A DNA stretch of 64,000 nt, taken from a virus (lineage: Duplodnaviria; Heunggongvirae; Uroviricota; Caudoviricetes). Below the pieces are notes generated by a model. That model saw only the letters and a program-made list of their open reading frames with translations. It made no database searches and was not told the DNA's origin. The position numbers were made by a program, and so were the translations under genes. Within the stretch, counting starts at the first letter, position 1. Each line of letters opens with the position of its first letter. The stretch is from the IMG/VR virus record IMGVR_UViG_3300045988_006728; one strand, written 5' to 3'. Below are positions 41,478 to 61,003 of the stretch, piece by piece.

Positions 41478-43469
41478 GTGCTAATGTCTAAAGGTCGTAA
41501 ATTGAAAGAGGCTGGTCAGTTTGTTGGTCATTGCGCATGTCCACGTTGTGGTTCATCAGATGCTGGTTCAATCTATCATCATGACGATGATTCTTATTCA
41601 ATGACTTGCTTTAGTTGTAACAAAGGTTTCCCAGAGTGGGATTTTGATAAAGGACAAATCGTGAGCACTTATTCTACTGGTTCAGACAATAAAAACCGTA
41701 CTTTCCGTGGAATGGATTTAGACGATGTGAAAGAAAACCTTGAAGCAATGGACTTAAAGGATAGGAAGATTCCTGCAAAAGTCCTTGAACGCTTAGGTAT
41801 CAAGGTTGACATTGACAGTGACGGTGAAATTGATGCGCACTTCTATCCAACTTACAAACGTAATGAAGATGGTAAGCTAGAACATGTTGGCTACCGTGTT
41901 CGTCACCGTTACCCAGAAGACCATCCAAAAGAGCACCTACGTGGTAAGTTAAAAGACTTTTCTGGTGGTGTTGGAGACATTAAAGGTGAACTAGCAATGT
42001 TCGGTTCATGGATTGCTCCAGAAGGTGGTAACCGTCTATTCATCTGGGAAGGTGAGATGGAATGTGCGACAGCAATCTATATGACTTCTCTTGCGATTAA
42101 GGACAAGTCTCGTCGTAAGAATTACTGTCACGTATCTGTTCCATCAGGTGCAAACATTAAGTCTATCAAAGACAACTATCAGTACATCACATCATTTGAT
42201 GAGATTTACTTGTGCTTTGATAACGATGAAGCAGGTGCTAAAGCTACCAAAGAGGCTGCTGGTATCCTACCTATTGAGAAGGTTCGCTTATTCCAGTATC
42301 CAGAAGGTGTAAAAGACCTTAACGAGTGGTGGACAAAGTTCTATAAAGAGAAAGATACAGTTCTGGAAGGATTTAAGCAGCGTATCTACAATGCACCTCG
42401 TTACTGTCCTGCTGGTATCAAGAACTTTGCAGACGGTTTTGAGGCAATGAAGAATCGTGGTCAGATTCCATTGATTCCTTTCCCAGAATCTTTCGGGGAT
42501 TTGAACAGGCTGACTTATGGTGGTTACGGTTTAGGTGAGATTACAACTCTGGCAGCACCATCTTCAGTGGGTAAATCTGCATACACTCGTGAAATGATTT
42601 ATACTGCTTGGAAGGAAACCGATTACAATATTGGTGTAATTCCAGTTGAAGATACCTATGAAGAGTTGATGGAGATGCTCTGTGCAATTCACCTGAGCAA
42701 GCAGATTTCTGAGATTCCTTATGACGAACGTGATTGGGATGAATTGAAGGAAGCACACGCAGAACTATCTAAAGGTCGTCGTATCCACATCGTAGACCAT
42801 CAAGGGGCAATTGACCAAGATAACTTGCTGGAGTTTGTTGACTATCTTGTTAATAGTTTAGACTGTAAGATTATTATTCTTGACCCTATTACATTGGCCC
42901 TGTCACGTTCAGATACGGATGAAGAGGAAGTTTTATCTGAGCTATTGCGTCGTTGCAAACGCTACCAGTACGCACAGGTGAACGTCTGTCACGTTCGTAA
43001 GAGTGCAGGTGGTCAGAAGGCTAACTCCGAAGGTGGAGATATCTCTGAAGAGGATATTAAAGGTTCTGGTGCGTATTTCCAGATTTCTATGAACAACATT
43101 CTGTTAATGCGTAACAAGGTTGACCCAGACCCTGTTAAGAAAAACTTGACAAAAATCAAGTTAACTAAGTGTCGTCGTCATGGTAAGTCAACAGGTATTG
43201 CTGGTCATACTTGGTACAATCCAGATACAGGACGTCTTATCAAAGCTTCTGGATGTGGTGTTGATATTGATGGTGCAGCAGAAAATATTCGCCAGCAGTT
43301 TGGTATTGGTGAAGCTGAAGACCATTACGATGACTCTTTGCCACATTATGAGGACGAAGTGTTTGACCGTGAGACTGGTGAAGTCTATACTGAAGAGCAG
43401 CGTCAAAGCTCAACGATTCCACCTGTATTAAGTGAGGATGCAGATGACTGCCCGTTCGAAACTGAGTGA
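41478..43469 (+). CDS. Bifunctional DNA primase-helicase (T7 gp4-like)
   Basis: Zn-binding CACPRCG...CFSCN, TOPRIM region (FIWEGEMECATAI, CFDNDEAGAKA), helicase Walker A APSSVGKS and Walker B IIILD. Confidence 0.8.
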   Translation: MLMSKGRKLKEAGQFVGHCACPRCGSSDAGSIYHHDDDSYSMTCFSCNKGFPEWDFDKGQIVSTYSTGSDNKNRTFRGMDLDDVKENLEAMDLKDRKIPAKVLERLGIKVDIDSDGEIDAHFYPTYKRNEDGKLEHVGYRVRHRYPEDHPKEHLRGKLKDFSGGVGDIKGELAMFGSWIAPEGGNRLFIWEGEMECATAIYMTSLAIKDKSRRKNYCHVSVPSGANIKSIKDNYQYITSFDEIYLCFDNDEAGAKATKEAAGILPIEKVRLFQYPEGVKDLNEWWTKFYKEKDTVLEGFKQRIYNAPRYCPAGIKNFADGFEAMKNRGQIPLIPFPESFGDLNRLTYGGYGLGEITTLAAPSSVGKSAYTREMIYTAWKETDYNIGVIPVEDTYEELMEMLCAIHLSKQISEIPYDERDWDELKEAHAELSKGRRIHIVDHQGAIDQDNLLEFVDYLVNSLDCKIIILDPITLALSRSDTDEEEVLSELLRRCKRYQYAQVNVCHVRKSAGGQKANSEGGDISEEDIKGSGAYFQISMNNILLMRNKVDPDPVKKNLTKIKLTKCRRHGKSTGIAGHTWYNPDTGRLIKASGCGVDIDGAAENIRQQFGIGEAEDHYDDSLPHYEDEVFDRETGEVYTEEQRQSSTIPPVLSEDADDCPFETE

Positions 43470-43943
43470 TAGCTATAAAAGAGAGGGGTTCACACCCTTC
43501 TTTGAAGAAAAAAGTTTAAATAAATTTCATGAAGAGTGTTTGACAAAGATTGATAGGTTCTATAGAATGCTCCACATGAAATGCGATGGAGAAGTTGAAA
43601 TAGAACAACAGTTCCATCAAAGTATGATTACAGTCATCATTACACTGCCTCAGCATAATATTGGTTGGCTGTTTATAATGAAAGAAAATGTGTTTGAATA
43701 TCAAGTATATCGGAGAATATCATGAAACACTCTAAAGCATTTGAAAAAGTTTTTGGGGATTCCTTAAAAGCCACTGCTGGAAAACCAGCAAAATACTATG
43801 AAGAAAAACGTGTAAGAACTGGAAAAACTGCACGTAAAGCAGCTTCTAAAGATAAGCACAACTTCCAGTAATTAGTATTTGACAATAGAGTATCAACAAA
43901 TTAGAATTGGTACTCTTCATAAATTGAGATAGAGGTTTAAATA

Positions 43944-52670: not shown

Positions 52671-54815
52671 ATGAACAAAGTACAGATTATTAAAAAGAAT
52701 GGCTCACTTGAAGAACCTAATATCAAAAAAGTTTTAGCAGCAGTCACAAAGTCAGCTAACAGAGTTGGTTATAAAGAGCTTCCACCAGATGTTACTCAAG
52801 CTCTTGAGTCAGCATTTATGAGGATTCTGGTAAAGTCCACTAAGCAGAATAATTTGCTAATTTCGGTAAATGATATTCACAGTATTGTTGAGGGTGCTTT
52901 GGCAGAAGTCAATCACGAGATTTATGAGTCTTACTCAACATATAGAAATTACCGTAAAGAGGTTGCTCAAAATTGGGATGAGCTTTACAAAAAGACTAGA
53001 GACACGCTCTTCTTAGGTGACCGTGAAAACGCTAACTTTGACAGCAGTTTAATTTCTACAAAAGGTTCAATTATTCGTGGTTACCTGACTAAAGAAATCT
53101 TTAAGCAGTACCATTTAACACCAGAGGAACTTGAAGCCATTGAAAAAGGGTTTATCTATATCCACGATTTAAGAGACCTGATTTTTGGCGGCATTAACTG
53201 TTGCTTGTTTGACATTGGTAAAGTACTGAAAGGTGGCTTTGAGATGTCTGGCATCGAATACTGTGAACCGAAGTCTGTGCTGTCAGCCTTACAGGTTATT
53301 GGTGATGTAGTTCTTTCAGCAACTGCACAGCAATTTGGTGGATTTACTTTAGCAGAGATTGATAAGGTGCTTGTACCGTATGCTAAAAAGTCTCTACGCT
53401 ACCATGCTGAGAAAGCAGCATCTTACGGTATTCCTAAAGAACATTACCACAATTATGTCATGGAGCAGCTACAGCTTGAATTAACTCAGGGTTTCCAGTC
53501 ACTCGAAATGAAACTGAACACTGTACCTTGTAGCCGTGGTGATTTTGCATTTACAACTTTGACATTTGGATTACTTGACTCAGATATGTCTAATGAAGAC
53601 AACCGACTGCAATACATGATTGCAAACACCATTCTTGATGTTCGCATGAATGGACAAGGTAAGAGTAAGAAGCCTGTTGTATTCCCTAAACTGGTTTATA
53701 TTCATGACCAGAAGAGACACGATGAGAATATCTGTCAAGGCCAACTGTACAGCAAAGCTATTGAGTGTTGCTCTAAAGCGATGTATCCAGATTTCTTAAG
53801 TGTATCTGGTCATGGTGCTGTAGCAGAAGCTTTTGAGCGTTCTGGCAAGGTAATTTCACCGATGGGTTGCAGAGCTTTCTTATCCCCATATCTTAACGAG
53901 AATGGAGAAGAGTTCTACGTTGGTCGTGCTAATATTGGTGCTGTATCTTTGAACTTACCAATGATTTACCAGTATTCTAAAGAGAATGGTTTAGATTTCT
54001 GGAAAGAGCTTGATAAGTACCTAGAAATGATTCGCAGCTTCCATAAGAAACGTTACGAAATGATTGCCAATATGCCAGCAAGTTCTAACCCTCTTGCATT
54101 CACACAAGGTGGTCTGTATAAAGGGACTAAGAAGCCTACTGACAAGGTTGGTTGGGATATTGTGAAGTCCTTCACAGCTTCTTTTGGGGTTACTGCTCTT
54201 GATGAGTTATCTGTTCTTGCTGAAGGTAAACGACTTCATGAAGTTGGAAGTTCCAGTTTTGCATACGATGTTCTGGCATACATTAACATGAAAACTGAAG
54301 AGTTTAAGAATGAAGATGGCTTCCTGTATGCAGTATATGGCACTCCAGCAGAGTCATTGTGTGGAACTCAGCTAAAACAGTTCAGAGATATGTTTGGTGT
54401 TATTAAAGGCGTTTCTGACAAGGAATACTTTACAAACAGTTTCCATATGAATGTTGCAGCAAACATCTCACCATTTGAGAAGCAGGACTTAGAAGAGCCA
54501 TTCTTCCATATCTGTAGAGGTGGCAGAATCCAGTATGTAAGGGTAGCTAACCCAGAAAACTTACCAGCACTTAAAAGTTGTATTACCAGAGGGATGTTGA
54601 AGGGTTTTTATCAGGGGCTTAACTTTGACTTAGCAATCTGTGAACATTGTGGTAACAGACCAAAGGCTGATGTTGAAGAATGTGAGGTTTGTCATTCACA
54701 TGATATCTCTGTGATTAACAGGGTGTGCGGATATCTGGGATGGACTAAGATTAAAGGTGAATCCCGAATGAACGATGCAAAAATCGCTGAGATTCGTGAT
54801 AGAATATCTATGTAA
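52671..54815 (+). CDS. nrdD: Anaerobic ribonucleotide reductase (class III)
   Basis: 714 aa; C-terminal Zn site CEHCG...CEVCH and glycyl-radical motif RVCGYLG. Confidence 0.8.
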   Translation: MNKVQIIKKNGSLEEPNIKKVLAAVTKSANRVGYKELPPDVTQALESAFMRILVKSTKQNNLLISVNDIHSIVEGALAEVNHEIYESYSTYRNYRKEVAQNWDELYKKTRDTLFLGDRENANFDSSLISTKGSIIRGYLTKEIFKQYHLTPEELEAIEKGFIYIHDLRDLIFGGINCCLFDIGKVLKGGFEMSGIEYCEPKSVLSALQVIGDVVLSATAQQFGGFTLAEIDKVLVPYAKKSLRYHAEKAASYGIPKEHYHNYVMEQLQLELTQGFQSLEMKLNTVPCSRGDFAFTTLTFGLLDSDMSNEDNRLQYMIANTILDVRMNGQGKSKKPVVFPKLVYIHDQKRHDENICQGQLYSKAIECCSKAMYPDFLSVSGHGAVAEAFERSGKVISPMGCRAFLSPYLNENGEEFYVGRANIGAVSLNLPMIYQYSKENGLDFWKELDKYLEMIRSFHKKRYEMIANMPASSNPLAFTQGGLYKGTKKPTDKVGWDIVKSFTASFGVTALDELSVLAEGKRLHEVGSSSFAYDVLAYINMKTEEFKNEDGFLYAVYGTPAESLCGTQLKQFRDMFGVIKGVSDKEYFTNSFHMNVAANISPFEKQDLEEPFFHICRGGRIQYVRVANPENLPALKSCITRGMLKGFYQGLNFDLAICEHCGNRPKADVEECEVCHSHDISVINRVCGYLGWTKIKGESRMNDAKIAEIRDRISM

Positions 54816-55562: not shown

Positions 55563-55858
55563 GTAAAACAATTCGAAGAAAAGGTTTAAAGAACGTTCAT
55601 GGACTCTATGAGTGGAGAAATGAGGTACGTAACAGAGAAAATGCTTCAGATGTCTACTTCCATTCTGATATGATGTCCAGAAAAGGTGGCTCTTACGACT
55701 TCACAAGCCAGCCTTGTAGAGAGATTAAGAAGGCCACTAAACGTCTTACAAGAACACAAATAAGGCAGCTTTCTAAGACATCCTTCTTAGATGAAGACTT
55801 TGATATTGATAGCAAGTCTCCAAAGAAAGCCGCTAAGAACACTTATATGTATTGGTGA
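55559..55858 (+). CDS. Hypothetical basic protein
   Basis: 99-aa ORF. Confidence 0.35.
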   Translation: MSKTIRRKGLKNVHGLYEWRNEVRNRENASDVYFHSDMMSRKGGSYDFTSQPCREIKKATKRLTRTQIRQLSKTSFLDEDFDIDSKSPKKAAKNTYMYW

Positions 55859-55867
55859 GGTAACTAG

Positions 55868-56353
55868 ATGAATTACATGGAGATTAGGCCATTTGACACA
55901 GCTAATGGTGAAGGGGTTCGTGTAAGCCTCTTCGTAGCTGGTTGTAAGCATCACTGTGAAGGCTGCTTTAACAGGGAGTCTTGGAAGTTTAATGCTGGTA
56001 AAGTATTTACTTATGCAAACCTCTACGGCATCATTAAGCTAATGGATGATGAGGCCATCAGTGGGTTGTCAATACTTGGTGGGGAGCCTCTGGATGATAG
56101 AAACATTCAAGAGGTCACCAACATATGCAAGCGTATTAAAACTGTTTATCCAGAAAAGTCTATATGGCTTTGGACAGGTTTTCAACTGCACGAAAAAATC
56201 CACTTAGATGTGATGAAATATGTTGACGTGGTGATTGATGGTAAGTATGATTCATCTAAACCAACAGTTAAACCATATCGTGGTTCTGATAACCAAAACC
56301 TCTGGAGAAAAGAGTATGGGTGGCAAGGTGATTGCCAATGGCGAGCAGAATGA
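55868..56353 (+). CDS. nrdG: Anaerobic ribonucleotide reductase activating protein (radical SAM)
   Basis: 161 aa; CKHHCEGC cluster near the N-terminus. Confidence 0.7.
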   Translation: MNYMEIRPFDTANGEGVRVSLFVAGCKHHCEGCFNRESWKFNAGKVFTYANLYGIIKLMDDEAISGLSILGGEPLDDRNIQEVTNICKRIKTVYPEKSIWLWTGFQLHEKIHLDVMKYVDVVIDGKYDSSKPTVKPYRGSDNQNLWRKEYGWQGDCQWRAE

Positions 56354-56590
56354 TTATTCTGGTAAGTGGACTTATGACATCAACAAGTTAGATGCCTGGA
56401 TGATTTATACGAGAGAAAAATTTGGTGCACGTTCATTATGTGCTCTTGCAACGATGGTGAAGAACGTTACCTTTGAAATTCATGAATCAGATAAGTTTGG
56501 AGACTTCTACAGGATTCAAAACATCAGAGAAGGTATAACTCCAATCGGTATCACTGAAGAAGAACTTCATAAGTTCTGTATTAAACTTTA

Positions 56591-56872
56591 ATGAGAGAGA
56601 CTAAAATGGGAATTTTAGGCAATATTAAAGCTGGCTTTTTGAAGGCACTGGCAAAAGCAGCAGCAATCATTTCTATGACTGGGAAGCAGGTTGGTGTAGA
56701 TGCTTCAGCAATTGCACAGGTTCTTGCAAGCCAAATTGAACAGCAGCCTTACATCCACGTTGGACGTGGTAAAGGTGGTAAAAAACAAGCACATCGACCA
56801 ACTGGTGCAGCAGCAATTAAACGTGCAGCTAAGAAAGCTCGTAACCGTAAACGTAATAAGAAGGCTAAATAA
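56591..56872 (+). CDS. Small protein with highly basic C-terminal tail
   Basis: 93 aa ending RAAKKARNRKRNKKAK. Confidence 0.4.
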   Translation: MRETKMGILGNIKAGFLKALAKAAAIISMTGKQVGVDASAIAQVLASQIEQQPYIHVGRGKGGKKQAHRPTGAAAIKRAAKKARNRKRNKKAK

Positions 56873-56874
56873 TC

Positions 56875-57186
56875 ATGAGCAAAGTTTATAACACTCGTAA
56901 GATTCAGATTGCAGTTCTGTGTCAGTTTATGGTTGAGCAACATAACGCACATTATTGTGGTACGGGATTTCTAACCTTTGGTGGCGAACACATCCCATTT
57001 AAGAAAGCTGTGAAGATGTACAACGAATCTCTTGATGGTAGTAAAGAGCTAGAACAGCTTAAACTAACTTACAATAAGAAAGACAAGAAGATTGTATGTC
57101 TAAACCACTCTATTAAACCTACAAATTACATTATAAGCAACATTGGCGAAGAAGGCTTCCTCAAAGTGTTGAAAATCTCACAGTAA
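56875..57186 (+). CDS. Hypothetical protein
   Basis: 103-aa ORF followed by a terminator (gggaac-tgtaaag-gttccc). Confidence 0.4.
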   Translation: MSKVYNTRKIQIAVLCQFMVEQHNAHYCGTGFLTFGGEHIPFKKAVKMYNESLDGSKELEQLKLTYNKKDKKIVCLNHSIKPTNYIISNIGEEGFLKVLKISQ

Positions 57187-57237
57187 TATTATATGATTAG
57201 GGAACTGTAAAGGTTCCCTTTTTATTTTGGAGATAAC

Positions 57238-57753
57238 ATGTATCTGTCAAACCTGAAACGTTCGGCTGCAATGTCAGTTCTAAGACTCAGCTTTGAGGAA
57301 CGTCAAGAATTTATAGACTCCCACAAATATGACCCTTCAAATTCTAATCACATGGTTCTTTGGAATCGTGATAACTTCCGTGAAAGAGCACTTGTCCGTT
57401 ATTACCCACACTACACAATAGATAACCTGTATGAATGGTGTGTTGTGAAGAACACCATTGCAACACTGAACAATCTTTGCAGGTATACGGGTAAGCAAAC
57501 ATTTACACTAGGCCACCACAAACCTGTTACAAAAGGTGGTGAACATCACTGTGCGAACTGGTTTATCCAAACTAAAGCTGATAACCAGAAGCAAGGAGAT
57601 AGCCTCCTAAGTATCCCTAAGATGACCTATGAAGAGCAAGAGAAATATATCAAAAATAATATGCCAGATGTGCTTGACAACAACTATACAGATTTGGCAA
57701 TATCTCTCCTGTTGAAGTTCGAGACAGTTTATAGGGCAACTTATAATGGCTAA
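57238..57753 (+). CDS. Hypothetical protein with possible HNH-like His/Asn cluster
   Basis: 171 aa; GHHKPVTKGGEHHCANW segment; weak. Confidence 0.3.
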   Translation: MYLSNLKRSAAMSVLRLSFEERQEFIDSHKYDPSNSNHMVLWNRDNFRERALVRYYPHYTIDNLYEWCVVKNTIATLNNLCRYTGKQTFTLGHHKPVTKGGEHHCANWFIQTKADNQKQGDSLLSIPKMTYEEQEKYIKNNMPDVLDNNYTDLAISLLLKFETVYRATYNG

Positions 57754-58020
57754 AGAAAAGTGGGAGATTTTACCATTAGTCAGTGAAGGAGGTAATGGTT
57801 GTGAAATGTACATGATACGTGGTCATGTTCCAGAGCCAATTGCACTTGAGATGGTAAACAACTTTACAGATGGTTCTTACAAAGACTTAGGCGAACCAAC
57901 TGTCAAGCAACAATGGGTTAAACCTGTACCAGACAGCACAGGTAACTGTAGTGTACTTTATCACGTTGTAGACCCTGCAAAATGCAAATCTGCAATGGCA
58001 GTAACAAACGTAACTTTTGA

Positions 58021-58371
58021 TTGAGAGAGAAAACTATGAAAATCAAAGAGATGAACATCAACATTGTCTTAGAAGAACGTTGGGAGAACATCAAGAAGCC
58101 TGAAGATGGCCATAAGTTTCTTAACAAAATTTTAGTAGCAGCTAAAGAAGAACTAACTGGCAAGGTCGCAGCAGCAATTACAATAAAGGTCTGTGTAAAA
58201 GGTCTTCCAGATAATCACCAATTTGCACTTGACGAGTTTAAAGAAAGCTTCTACAATCCAAACAAACAGATGCTTGAAAGTAACTTTGCAGTGTCTACAA
58301 GTATCGTCCATGACAGAAGCTTTATCCTTTACAAGAATATGAGAGGTGAGTCATGCAAGCATATTGGATAG
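58021..58371 (+). CDS. Hypothetical protein
   Basis: 116-aa ORF. Confidence 0.35.
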   Translation: MREKTMKIKEMNINIVLEERWENIKKPEDGHKFLNKILVAAKEELTGKVAAAITIKVCVKGLPDNHQFALDEFKESFYNPNKQMLESNFAVSTSIVHDRSFILYKNMRGESCKHIG

Positions 58372-58557
58372 AAATTTTACTGTCACTTGGTAGTGTAGCA
58401 GTATTTGTCTACCTCCTTTGTAAGTACTTTGCAGAGCACAAAAAATGTGACTACTGTAATGGAGAGGGGTACATAAGGGCAGGTTGTTGCCCTATGTGTG
58501 GTGGTTCTGGTAAAATGTTTAATAAGTAATTTAACAGTAAACTAAGAGGAAAGTATT

Positions 58558-60924
58558 ATGCGCATGGTAAACGACCACGCAGAAGTGATTAAGAGTTCAA
58601 CTTCTTTAGAGACGTCTCAAGCACAGATTACAATGACACCTGAAATGTTCAGCCTTTTGAGTTCCGGTGTATACACATTTAAAGAAAGGGCAGTGATTCG
58701 TGAACTGTCATGTAACGCAGTAGATGCTCAAAAAGAAGCTGGAAAAGAGAACATCCCGTTCCATGTGCATTTACCTACTCGATTTGAGCCTTACTTTGAA
58801 GTCCGTGACTTTGGAACTGGTTTAACCCATGACAAAGTAATGAGTTTGTATCTGAACTATGGGGCTTCTACGAAGAATGACTCTAATGACTACATTGGTG
58901 CAATGGGTATCGGCTCAAAGTCACCGTTTGCGATTGCTCAGTCATTCACAGTGTCTAGCTATGTTGATGGTGTTGTTAATAAGTACTCTGTTTACCTTGA
59001 GAATGGTATTCCTCAAGTAACTAAGCTTACTACTAACCAAACAAATGAACCTAATGGTTTAGCTGTACGTGTGGCAGTTGCTGACCACCGTATTTCAAAG
59101 TTCTTTGAAGAGGCTGGTAATGTATACTCATACTTTGCTGTAAAACCAGAGAGTAATGTGGAGTATAATGATATATTAGCAGATATGGATGTGATTGCTC
59201 GTGAAGAAGGTGTCTATGATGCCATGACTCATAAGCATAGCTGGCGTTCAAGCAGCAATAGAACAGAGTTTAACGTGGTTATGGGTAATATTGCCTACCC
59301 AGTTAATATGGAGGTATTACTTGGTGATGATTTCTTCAAAGTATTACCAGAATTTTTCCGCAGGAGCATAGACCTTGTAAACATCTACATGCCTATTGGT
59401 TCAGTTGCTTTTGCAGCTTCTCGTGAAGCATTGCAGATGAATGACACGACAAAAAATGTTATCATCGAGGCTACTAAAAAGATAACTGAAGCAATTACAA
59501 AGGATGTTATCAAGAAAGTTAATAGTCAACCTACACTCATGGATGCTGCACAGGCTTATGCTGAGTTACGCTTGAACTCACGAGAGATGTTTAATGTTGT
59601 GTGTCCAAAGCTAGAGTGGGGAGGTGTTAAGCTTGATTCTCTGGAAGAAGAATTACTAAACATTCGTTGTGGAATTATCTACGCAGAGGACGGCTCAGTC
59701 ATCTATGAACGTGACGGCAAAGGTAATATTAAGGTTGACAGTAAAGGAAACAACATTCCTAAAGTGGACTACCTATACAATCCAGTTGCTTATGTTAAGT
59801 TCAACTCTTTAGAGAGTAAGATTCGTGCAACAGCACTTTCCTACACTCAAGAGGCGAGCATGTTCAATATCTTTGGTGCAATGCGTAAAAGCCAAATTGA
59901 ACAGTTTTTGTTCGTGATTAATGACCGTCGCAATAAAAACGGTACTGAAAAGACTGTAGGCCGCAATCAGATTCTGCGTGATGCATGTCGAGACTACGCC
60001 AGTGAGTCAAGTCTGTTTCACAGATATAATGGTATTGTGTTTGTATTCTCGACTGAAAAAGAGTTAGACGACCTAATCAATCTACACAAACTTGATAAAA
60101 GCTTGTTAAAGATTGTGAAGATGTCTGATAAGGAACATTACTATCAGCGTAAAGAAGCTGTAAGGGGTGTTGTAAAACTCTGGAAAGCTGTTCCAGCAGA
60201 AGGTGTAGCTTCCTATAAAGAGGTTTCAGAGGACTTCGATACAATTGAAGAACCTCAGCTTTACATTAAGGCAGTTGGTGATACAGTTGATGGCGAATGT
60301 TTTTGCTCATCTCCAGAAGATGTAGCCAAGTCAGTTGCTAATGTTACAGGGAAGACAGTCTATGTTTTCCGAAAAGCAAATTGGAAAAAGATACCAGAAG
60401 ACTGGATTGAAGTAGATGAGAAGCTCTTGAACGACAGCTTAACTGATGTTCACTGGATTAATCATAACAGGTATATGACACGTATCTATATGAATGGTGT
60501 TCTTGACCTTACAAGCAGTTGGATTATCGCCAGAAACTTTACATTCAATAACAGGAAGATTTCTCGTGGTTATTGCTATTCACGAGATACTAACAAAACT
60601 ATCTTCCTAGAAGGCAATGAAGATGCTGTAGAGGCAATGTTCGGTAAAATCCAATACGTTGCTGCACCATTTGCATACACTTATACTGTTAGTGTATTGA
60701 AAACTTTGAAAGACTGTCTTGACAATGATACAAAGCTTTACAAGAAAATTAAGAAAGCTGGTGACCGCATGGTCATTAAGGTGACAAACTACCTTTCAAA
60801 AAGAAAACAAGAAAACTTCTTGCTTTCTCATTTAGATTGGAATAAAGTGTCACCTATCGAAGTGAGTAAGTTCTTAGGCTTTGATGTGAAGTGTGTTCCA
60901 GAAGGGACTACAATTTTCGATTAA
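58558..60924 (+). CDS. rIIA: rIIA-like protein (GHKL ATPase fold)
   Basis: 788 aa; N-terminal block RELSCNAVDA, RDFGTGL, DYIGAMGIGSKSPF...SY closely follows the T4 rIIA N-terminal pattern as recalled. Confidence 0.8.
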   Translation: MRMVNDHAEVIKSSTSLETSQAQITMTPEMFSLLSSGVYTFKERAVIRELSCNAVDAQKEAGKENIPFHVHLPTRFEPYFEVRDFGTGLTHDKVMSLYLNYGASTKNDSNDYIGAMGIGSKSPFAIAQSFTVSSYVDGVVNKYSVYLENGIPQVTKLTTNQTNEPNGLAVRVAVADHRISKFFEEAGNVYSYFAVKPESNVEYNDILADMDVIAREEGVYDAMTHKHSWRSSSNRTEFNVVMGNIAYPVNMEVLLGDDFFKVLPEFFRRSIDLVNIYMPIGSVAFAASREALQMNDTTKNVIIEATKKITEAITKDVIKKVNSQPTLMDAAQAYAELRLNSREMFNVVCPKLEWGGVKLDSLEEELLNIRCGIIYAEDGSVIYERDGKGNIKVDSKGNNIPKVDYLYNPVAYVKFNSLESKIRATALSYTQEASMFNIFGAMRKSQIEQFLFVINDRRNKNGTEKTVGRNQILRDACRDYASESSLFHRYNGIVFVFSTEKELDDLINLHKLDKSLLKIVKMSDKEHYYQRKEAVRGVVKLWKAVPAEGVASYKEVSEDFDTIEEPQLYIKAVGDTVDGECFCSSPEDVAKSVANVTGKTVYVFRKANWKKIPEDWIEVDEKLLNDSLTDVHWINHNRYMTRIYMNGVLDLTSSWIIARNFTFNNRKISRGYCYSRDTNKTIFLEGNEDAVEAMFGKIQYVAAPFAYTYTVSVLKTLKDCLDNDTKLYKKIKKAGDRMVIKVTNYLSKRKQENFLLSHLDWNKVSPIEVSKFLGFDVKCVPEGTTIFD

Positions 60925-61003
60925 AGTGTTTGACAAGGGGCTTCAAAACCCCTTAGAATAGCATCACAAAATGATTTATTAACTAACAAGAGAGAGTAAT
61001 AAG

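Follow-up and report, generated by a model that had tools for sequence, protein, structure and literature searches.

The small open reading frames (ORFs) described here lie in the 64,000-nucleotide DNA of IMG/VR virus record IMGVR_UViG_3300045988_006728 – in what follows, the window – which is a metagenome-assembled Felixounavirus of the Felix-O1-like coliphage/Salmonella phage type. Two of them, first delimited as 93 and 58 amino acids (aa) long, fall in a cluster at positions 56,591–58,530; the third, of 49 aa, is found 13 kb upstream of this cluster, directly after the primase-helicase gene. It seems probable that the cluster forms a dispensable Felixounavirus accessory block, flanked by the genes of the anaerobic ribonucleotide reductase on one side and by rIIA/rIIB on the other, with the 49-aa gene standing apart in the replication block, and that all three ORFs are genuine genes for proteins outside the virion. 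An earlier note had flagged them as uncharacterised small proteins, possibly with anti-defence functions; its observation is confirmed and its interpretation partly supported. The three genes and the ribosome-binding tract of one of them are as follows.

43722–43871, plus strand: 49-aa basic protein, pI 10.2; equivalent to Bas63 g54 and phrog_4424; Shine–Dalgarno (SD) sequence GGAG at 43712–43715
56593–56600, plus strand: (GA)4 SD-like tract, whose length differs among relatives
56606–56872, plus strand: 88-aa protein (the "93-aa ORF"); equivalent to Bas63 g75, Felix O1 ORF123 and phrog_4425; C-module VGRGKGGKKQAHRPTGAAAIKRAAKKARNRKRNKKAK
58353–58529 (stop included), plus strand: 58-aa protein, a predicted membrane-anchored zinc knuckle; equivalent to Bas63 g83, Felix O1 ORF131 and phrog_3931; SD sequence GAGG at 58343–58346

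Conservation of the three flagged genes

All three ORFs exist where they had been placed, and by the measure of their conservation they are protein-coding genes. Their length by itself is not above chance, because 57 ORFs of 30 aa or more occur in the same 7 kb, among them spurious ones of 68 and 81 aa on the minus strand. This abundance of spurious ORFs of 30–81 aa on both strands, together with the frequent omission of the 58-aa ORF by gene callers, is what could be expected if the three were chance ORFs of an AT-rich genome, coding for nothing. That reading keeps a negligible probability and is effectively refuted by conservation. The ORFs match PHROG families at E-values of 1e-33 to 1e-48 over their full length: phrog_4425 at E 5.5e-48 (residues 6–93 of the 93-aa ORF onto positions 1–88 of 88), phrog_3931 at E 1.5e-33 (1–58 of 59) and phrog_4424 at E 7.4e-36 (1–49 of 49). 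In tblastn searches, 254 phage records matched the 88-aa protein, 264 the 58-aa protein and 263 the 49-aa protein, so that intact copies are present in about 255–265 phage genomes over several genera. The Cys/Gly pattern of the 58-aa protein is invariant at 44–59% overall identity, and an SD sequence is in place 5–6 nt 5′ of each of the three starts. It is for these reasons, and not for their length, that the ORFs are taken as genes.

Selection points the same way. Among IMG/VR and GenBank relatives, the ratio of nonsynonymous to synonymous polymorphism (pN/pS) is 0.10 for the 58-aa gene, with all 22 distinct nucleotide versions intact, and 0.06 for the 49-aa gene, within a range of 0.06–0.17 across the ORFs that have enough ungapped copies. 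Purifying selection was thus measured directly for these two genes, and is seen for the 88-aa gene as residues that stay invariant across synonymous changes.

The proteins are indeed uncharacterised, although they are not unlisted, since all three are annotated in GenBank relatives: the 88-aa ORF as Felix O1 ORF123, Bas63 g75 and Meda_010; the 58-aa ORF as Felix O1 ORF131 "hypothetical membrane protein", Bas63 g83 "putative membrane protein" and Meda_002 "possible membrane protein"; and the 49-aa ORF, in Bas63, as g54. That two of them were missing from the ORF track used for the earlier note is plausible enough, as gene callers passed over the 58-aa gene in 7 of the 10 public contigs in which it is present. 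Felix O1 ORF123 and ORF131 and Bas63 g75, g83 and g54 are direct orthologues, the Bas63 proteins being 97–99% identical, with gene order and overlaps alike. At the nucleotide level, positions 56300–58042 share 99.9% identity with Felixounavirus LF82P2 and 87–93% with many phages of the Felix-O1 type that infect E. coli, Salmonella and Shigella, and 8336 bp around the flagged ORFs are 100% identical to the ENA metagenome contig ERZ1742057 NODE_40_length_71408.

The 49-aa product is at least 99% identical in 171 of the 263 phage records. Conservation of its first 34 residues extends to Mooglevirus and Suspvirus and, in weak form, to a Pectobacterium phage. Its ATG overlaps the stop codon of a 97-aa ORF (as ATGA) that has itself a pN/pS of 0.40 and is intact in 15 of 19 unique copies. 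This basic peptide would be co-translated with the gene that follows the primase-helicase, and is probably a non-essential accessory factor associated with the replisome or with nucleic acid. A promoter-like element, TTGACA-N17-TAGAAT, stands after the gene; strong sigma-70-like matches of this kind (TTGACA-N17/18-TAGAAT) are found at 43878–43906, after the 49-aa gene, and at 60930–60959, between rIIA and rIIB.

A basic protein and a predicted membrane-anchored zinc knuckle

The 93-aa ORF had been drawn from 56591 to 56872, with a C-terminus reading ...RNRKRNKKAK. The tail holds; the start does not. Most relatives have a TGA stop immediately before the conserved MGI(L/W) start of the 88-aa protein, and a (GA)n tract of variable length – GAGAGAGA at 56593–56600 in the window – separates the two possible starts, which together place the conserved start at the ATG at 56606, as in the annotation of Meda and Bas63. 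Among relatives (L006, L012, L020), this ribosome-binding tract ranges from (GA)4 to about (GA)8, and with its length the upstream in-frame ATG at 56591 is created or removed. The tract may be slippage-prone, affecting translation.

With a pI of 11.8 and 20 Lys and Arg against 2 Asp and Glu quoted for its basic tail, the 88-aa protein is extremely basic, and the tail falls in its most conserved part, in keeping with the suggestion of nucleic-acid binding. Homologues were found in Ounavirinae only, by both tblastn and word-index searches. The family combines at least four different N-terminal halves (MGILGN.KAGFLKALAKAAAI..., MGIFSGMKSRMLAALAKVAAV..., MGIWNSFKSKVKAALASLGML... and MFKIISKALAKLA...) with one and the same C-module, Y.YVGRGKGGKK(Q/R)AH..(S/T)GAAAIKRAAKKARNRKR.K. 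The codons of this module differ at many synonymous positions while its amino acids are fixed, which indicates that the constraint acts on the protein. An AlphaFold2 (AF2) model (overall pLDDT 63) has helices at residues 3–25, 33–46 and 68–87 and a low-confidence Gly-rich loop. In composition, the C-terminal helix (AAIKRAAKKARNRKRNKKAK) resembles the basic tails of H1-like and arginine-rich-motif nucleic-acid binders; the resemblance is compositional only, and homology to a solved or named protein was not detected. Its GRGKGGK stretch equals histone H4 residues 2–8, which we take to be most likely a coincidence.

The protein is probably a binder of polyanions, namely nucleic acid. The invariant Gly-rich loop and the basic helix (net charge about +15) would bind the polyanion, most likely RNA or DNA, while the fast-diverging amphipathic N-terminal helices might provide self-association or contact with a target or membrane.

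The same basicity had led to the suggestion of a packaged internal protein, that is, a DNA-condensing virion component injected with the genome. The H1-like AKKA/RNRKR tail would suit such a role, and small K/R-rich proteins easily escape tryptic mass spectrometry, but the idea fares badly and must be rated very unlikely. Mass spectrometry of Felix O1 virions found 17 proteins, none of them encoded in this block and ORF123 therefore not among them. The gene belongs to the Felix O1 early/middle transcription unit 97–131/1–23, by nrdG and not in the morphogenesis block, and its neighbours ORF122 and ORFs 124–130 reach maximal transcription at 25 min, not late. The cryo-EM paper on Bas63 has no mention of gp75 – nor of gp76, gp82 or gp83 – and the g75 knock-out is among the fittest on every host for which the data discussed below were read.

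The 58-aa protein, MQAYWIEILLSLGSVAVFVYLLCKYFAEHKKCDYCNGEGYIRAGCCPMCGGSGKMFNK, has a hydrophobic helix at about residues 3–28, followed by C32xxC35xGxG...C46xxC49xGxG. The transmembrane (TM) helix and four-Cys zinc site noted earlier stand as predictions, whereas "zinc ribbon" gives way to a zinc knuckle of the DnaJ/anti-TRAP type, which fits better. Homologues occur in Mooglevirus and Suspvirus (47–59% identity), and Krischvirus (RB49-like) phages have a 52-aa analogue (about 44%). Across those genera and Felixounavirus (alignment A2), the residues M1, E7, S11, C32, C35, G37, G39, C46, C49, G51, G53, K54 and K58 are invariant; C45 is present in most members and is replaced by Pro in one (P0010).

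The family profile matched the Cys-rich domain of E. coli DnaJ (1exk) at E 5.6e-9 and anti-TRAP at E 0.035. The AF2 model (pLDDT 80) shows helix 3–28, then a small knuckle, and ends 5 residues past it. By structure it came closest in the PDB to anti-TRAP (rmsd 0.9 Å over 28 residues), to the Cys-rich domains of DnaJ and to BSD2, the top Foldseek entries being 3ld0, 2bx9 and 3lcz (rmsd 0.9–1.1 Å over 28 residues; probability 0.99–1.00, E 0.08–0.4); among predicted viral structures, the best matches were uncharacterised small phage proteins. Word-index searches returned only close Ounavirinae or Krischvirus-like relatives. In a search of 1.84 billion representative proteins the profile gave 677 matches at E<1e-3, about 8 of which are 52–60-aa proteins with the same TM-plus-knuckle layout; the remainder, generic DnaJ and multi-repeat CxxCxGxG proteins, are uninformative on function.

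Each of the known proteins resembles the 58-aa protein in part. Anti-TRAP (RtpA of Bacillus, 53 aa; 36% identity) is similar in size, has a single zinc site built from two CxxCxGxG-like motifs and works purely through binding another protein; it is soluble, with a C-terminal oligomerisation helix, whereas the 58-aa protein has its helix, a TM one, at the N-terminus and adds nothing beyond the knuckle. Enterobacterial hosts are not known to have TRAP. The DnaJ Cys-rich domain (PF00684; 1exk) shares the CxxCxGxG motif but has it four times around two zinc centres, as opposed to two motifs and one centre in the 58-aa protein; the match to the DnaJ model TIGR02349 covers profile positions 179–212 only (18.6 bits versus 377), the J and substrate-binding domains being absent. 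Plant proteins of the BSD2/LQY1 type are small, with a DnaJ-type zinc finger and in some a TM anchor, yet they contain four motifs and serve in the assembly of chloroplast proteins; the relation is at the level of the domain only. The Krischvirus 52-aa protein has the same layout of TM helix, KK and CxxCxGxG-x5-CCxxCxGSGK, and gives reciprocal matches; its gene is coupled to that of the NrdH glutaredoxin in place of a 111-aa gene, and does not lie beside rII.

Before the helix the 58-aa protein has E7 as its only charge, and K24, K30 and K31 follow it, which predicts an N-out/C-in topology with a cytoplasmic zinc site. The short N-terminus would be periplasmic and followed by the single TM helix, and the lysines would place the C-terminal 30 residues in the cytoplasm, where the four invariant cysteines of the two CxxCxGxG motifs would bind one zinc ion to form a DnaJ/anti-TRAP-like knuckle. 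The gene overlaps the 111-aa gene by 19 nt and, to judge from this arrangement, is translationally coupled to it; the order 111-aa gene, 58-aa gene, rIIA, rIIB is kept in Felixounavirus, Suspvirus and Mooglevirus. The protein would be a small module for protein binding, held at the inner membrane and produced at a fixed ratio to the 111-aa protein; its most likely action is to tether or sequester some other protein. Several database copies of the gene (P0003, P0005, P0006, P0007), that of the GenBank phage phiWec177 among them, have a frameshift close to an A6 run (58425–58430), the zinc knuckle being replaced by an unrelated 63-aa tail – either a sequencing error or a genuine loss.

The cysteines might alternatively form no structural zinc site and make the protein a redox-active, thiol-disulfide membrane protein working with the glutaredoxin/ribonucleotide-reductase network. 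A redox link for the TM-plus-CxxCxGxG layout is hinted at by Krischvirus, where the start of the 52-aa gene overlaps the 3′ end of nrdH in 66 phage records (phage FL04, L061 2736–3153, and 65 others); the Felixounavirus gene, too, is in an nrd neighbourhood, and most members have the additional C45. Disulfide-isomerase activity has been reported for DnaJ-type Cys-rich domains and for plant LQY1/CYO1. Yet C45 is not invariant, the 111-aa partner has no CxxC motif and the structural matches are zinc-bound knuckles, which leaves the redox role improbable, if seriously in play.

Knock-out data and the counter-defence neighbourhood

On the plus strand, the genes run in the order nrdD, nrdG, 91-aa, "93-aa", 103-aa DUF7390, terminator, 171-aa HNH-like, 92-aa, 111-aa, 58-aa, rIIA. 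The features surrounding the flagged genes, including the gene upstream of the 49-aa ORF, are listed here.

43432–43725, plus strand: 97-aa ORF, Bas63 g53 homologue; follows the primase-helicase gene, and its stop overlaps the 49-aa start (ATGA)
56316–56591, plus strand: 91-aa ORF; equivalent to Bas63 g74, Felix O1 ORF122 and phrog_5082; overlaps the end of nrdG
56875–57186, plus strand: 103-aa DUF7390 protein; equivalent to Bas63 g76, Felix O1 ORF124 and phrog_4462
57199–57229, plus strand: intrinsic terminator, identical to Felix O1 t124
57238–57753, plus strand: 171-aa HNH-like protein (HH..GG..N..N); Bas63 g77 homologue, 90% identical to g77
57746–58024, plus strand: 92-aa ORF; equivalent to Bas63 g78, Felix O1 ORF126 and phrog_4726
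58027–58042, plus strand: NARP1 deletion junction, 16-nt microhomology GAGAAAACTATGAAAA
58036–58371, plus strand: 111-aa ORF; equivalent to Bas63 g82, Felix O1 ORF130 and phrog_4262; 19-nt overlap with the 58-aa gene
58558–60924, plus strand: rIIA, 788 aa; downstream neighbour of the 58-aa gene

Several of these neighbours deserve a remark of their own. The nrdD gene (52671–54815) is a single uninterrupted 714-aa ORF in the window; the Meda and Bas63 annotations join it from two pieces, with an insertion between them that carries an HNH homing endonuclease. The 103-aa DUF7390 protein is just 52% identical to Bas63 g76, compared with 90–99% for the flanking genes. This divergence (56875–57186) and the different N-terminal alleles of the 88-aa gene make the place a local hot spot of mosaicism. 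An Rfam scan of 55800–58700 matched no RNA family.

The published PhageMaP study of barcoded Bas63 knock-outs, in which each condition has three replicates and a positive score means that the loss is tolerated, found Bas63 46–66 kb to be uniformly non-essential. Its raw data were read here for the empty vector, retron Ec67, QatABCD, Sir2-HerA and strain S17, out of a larger set that also has TerY-P, AVAST4, dsr1, ppl, RADAR2 and others; for g54 the scores are those of strain S17. The scores are given below, replicates being separated by slashes.

Empty vector: g75 +1.02/+1.31/+1.33; g77 +1.23/+1.03/+1.10; g83 +0.45/-0.01/+0.17
Retron Ec67: g75 +1.30/+1.01/+1.24; g77 -0.29/-0.63/-0.51; g83 +0.64/+0.39/-0.02
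QatABCD: g75 +0.60/+0.93/+0.65; g77 +1.02/+0.74/+1.40; g83 +0.77/+0.66/+0.81; g84 -1.26 to -1.61; g85 -1.05 to -2.46
Sir2-HerA: g75 +1.53/+1.57/+1.42; g77 +0.79/+0.75/+0.87; g83 +0.04/+0.12/-0.68; g79 -2.1 to -3.0; g80 -3.0 to -3.3
Strain S17: g75 about +1.0; g77 about +1.06; g83 +0.1 to +0.5; g54 +0.51/+0.79/+1.32

The Bas63 homologues g75, g83 and g54 are therefore dispensable on laboratory hosts, and neither g75 nor g83 shows a clear conditional requirement under Sir2-HerA, Ec67 or QatABCD. The same sheets bear on whether the 58-aa and 111-aa proteins could be a functional subunit of the rIIA/rIIB membrane-protection module. The gene order 111-aa, 58-aa, rIIA, rIIB, kept in three Ounavirinae genera, would favour this, as would the predicted membrane anchor of the 58-aa protein, rII proteins being membrane-associated. 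Under QatABCD, however, g84 and g85 are strongly needed (-1.0 to -2.5) and the g83 knock-out is fit (+0.66 to +0.81), so that the 58-aa protein is not needed for rII-dependent QatABCD escape in Bas63, where this candidate role fails; moreover, the Krischvirus analogue is coupled to the NrdH glutaredoxin gene and not to rII. Membership of the rII module is accordingly improbable.

As to anti-defence, the suggestion holds for the neighbourhood but not for the flagged ORFs themselves, for which no supporting evidence was found. Around them, g77 has been clonally validated against retron Ec67 (a 10-fold loss in efficiency of plating, complemented), the NARP1 genes g79/g80 of Bas63 counter NAD+-depleting systems, and rIIA/rIIB (g84/g85) counter QatABCD. 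That one or more of the three serve as dedicated inhibitors of defence would agree with this location among proven counter-defence genes, with their dispensability on laboratory hosts and with the swapping of N-terminal alleles on the invariant C-module of the 88-aa protein, a pattern often seen in arms-race genes. Against it stand the absence of a match to any defence or anti-defence model, the lack of a clear conditional fitness loss for g75 and g83 in the Sir2-HerA, Ec67 and QatABCD sheets, and their absence from the 10 counter pairs validated by the PhageMaP authors. Such a role is unlikely on present evidence, although it stays, with the redox role, seriously in play. None of the 88-aa, 49-aa, 111-aa, 92-aa and 91-aa proteins drew a match in sequence searches of Pfam, NCBIfam, PADLOC and PDB, and no functional study of these proteins was found in the literature on CXXCXGXG phage proteins and Felixounavirus anti-defence.

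The 171-aa homologue of g77 contains the motif GHHKPVTKGGEHHCANWFIQTKADNQ and matches phrog_2214 "HNH endonuclease" at E 2.3e-6, with no Pfam HNH match at E<=1; its matches to staphylococcal protein A B-domains were set aside as repeat-driven noise. The PhageMaP preprint labels g77 "GIY-YIG catalytic domain protein", g76 "HNH" and g78 "ribose-phosphate pyrophosphokinase". As the g77 homologue has both the HH..GG..N..N motif and the HNH PHROG match, these labels look shifted or mis-assigned, a question that bears on the proposed anti-retron mechanism.

Several points weigh against reading the flagged ORFs as genuine, dispensable accessory genes with the properties proposed above. The Felix O1 RT-PCR table has ORFs 122 and 124–130 and lacks 123 and 131. 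The g83 knock-out scores about +0.2 as compared with about +0.8 for typical non-essential genes, a difference that a genuine slight cost of the loss or polarity on rIIA could explain, and g82, the gene of the 111-aa partner, has no PhageMaP scores. For the 88-aa protein, the low-confidence model is too weak for a fold search, and no homologue of known function came out of the searches just listed. The 58-aa protein has the CxxCxGxG motif of PF00684 in two copies and so lacks that family's four motifs and two zinc centres; it scores below the gathering threshold (18.3 versus 32.7 bits) and below both anti-TRAP cut-offs (PF15777, 11.7 versus 32 bits; NF058604, 14.4 versus 65), and its zinc binding, topology and partners are all inferred.

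Loss of NARP1 and significance

In nearly all relatives, NARP1, an operon for the reconstitution of NAD+, is sited between the 92-aa and 111-aa genes and consists of Adps, annotated as a ribose-phosphate pyrophosphokinase (Prs-like), and Namat, a nicotinamide phosphoribosyltransferase (NadV-like), often with an HNH gene between them, followed by a terminator. Its DNA is present in 259 phage records, as against 264 with the 58-aa gene (about 98%), and in all 21 IMG/VR Felixounavirus loci. The window is without it: about 3.2 kb of Adps-HNH-Namat and terminator are gone (intact comparison: L001 5738–8968), tblastn with the Meda Adps and Namat proteins gave no match anywhere in the 64 kb, and the 111-aa gene starts 12 nt beyond the 92-aa stop at 58024. 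The 111-aa/58-aa pair, preceded in Felix O1 and Bas63 by the NARP1 genes and terminator, here directly follows the 92-aa gene. In intact genomes, the 16-nt sequence at the junction, which comprises ribosome-binding site (RBS) and start codon, occurs both at the start of Adps (prs) and at that of the 111-aa gene, and NARP1 has been excised cleanly through this microhomology. Searches for the exact 28-nt junction string gave no match in IMG/VR or in JGI metagenome contigs; the string turned up only in the ERZ1742057 contig that matches the window, two similar places being reported besides.

Other deletions touch the same interval. A partial and untidy one (L002 3291–3538) arose independently in the Salmonella phages FM4b and FG1m. 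In an 8.9-kb Logan contig (P0042), a larger microhomology deletion has removed five accessory genes together with NARP1, leaving a 131-aa fusion in which the first 71 residues of the 88-aa protein run into the C-terminal 60 of the 111-aa protein at a shared GCAGCAGCAATTA (56812–56824 and 58166–58178 in the window).

What the flagged genes mean for the biology of these phages is best stated modestly. They are ordinary, already annotated hypothetical genes of a well-sampled genus, with no sign of a new kind of system, and the flagged finding itself matters little, near-identical copies being deposited in more than 250 phage genomes and the genes being dispensable in published knock-out data. The 58-aa protein can now be described more precisely – as a predicted N-out/C-in anchor with a single zinc knuckle and a coupled partner gene – and belongs to a recurring phage mini-protein layout. 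A bolder reading would make it and its 52–60-aa relatives in other phage groups an unrecognised class of membrane-tethered, anti-TRAP-like zinc-knuckle inhibitors, and the 88-aa protein a second new effector of host takeover or counter-defence. The former would hold a particular host protein of the cytoplasm, for example a sensor of a defence system or part of a chaperone or protease, at the inner membrane, and the latter, in which exchangeable N-terminal alleles are set on one invariant basic module, would act on nucleic acid; this reading is improbable.

The unusual feature of the stretch is rather the natural, clean loss of the NARP1 counter-defence operon by way of a 16-nt RBS/start-codon repeat. 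Bas63 without its NARP1 genes loses 20-fold to 10^4–10^6-fold in plating efficiency on Sir2-HerA hosts, and for this reason the phage of the window is predicted to be sensitive to NAD+-depleting defence. Taken with the at least two other independent deletions in the interval, this loss shows the anti-defence island to be readily shed.

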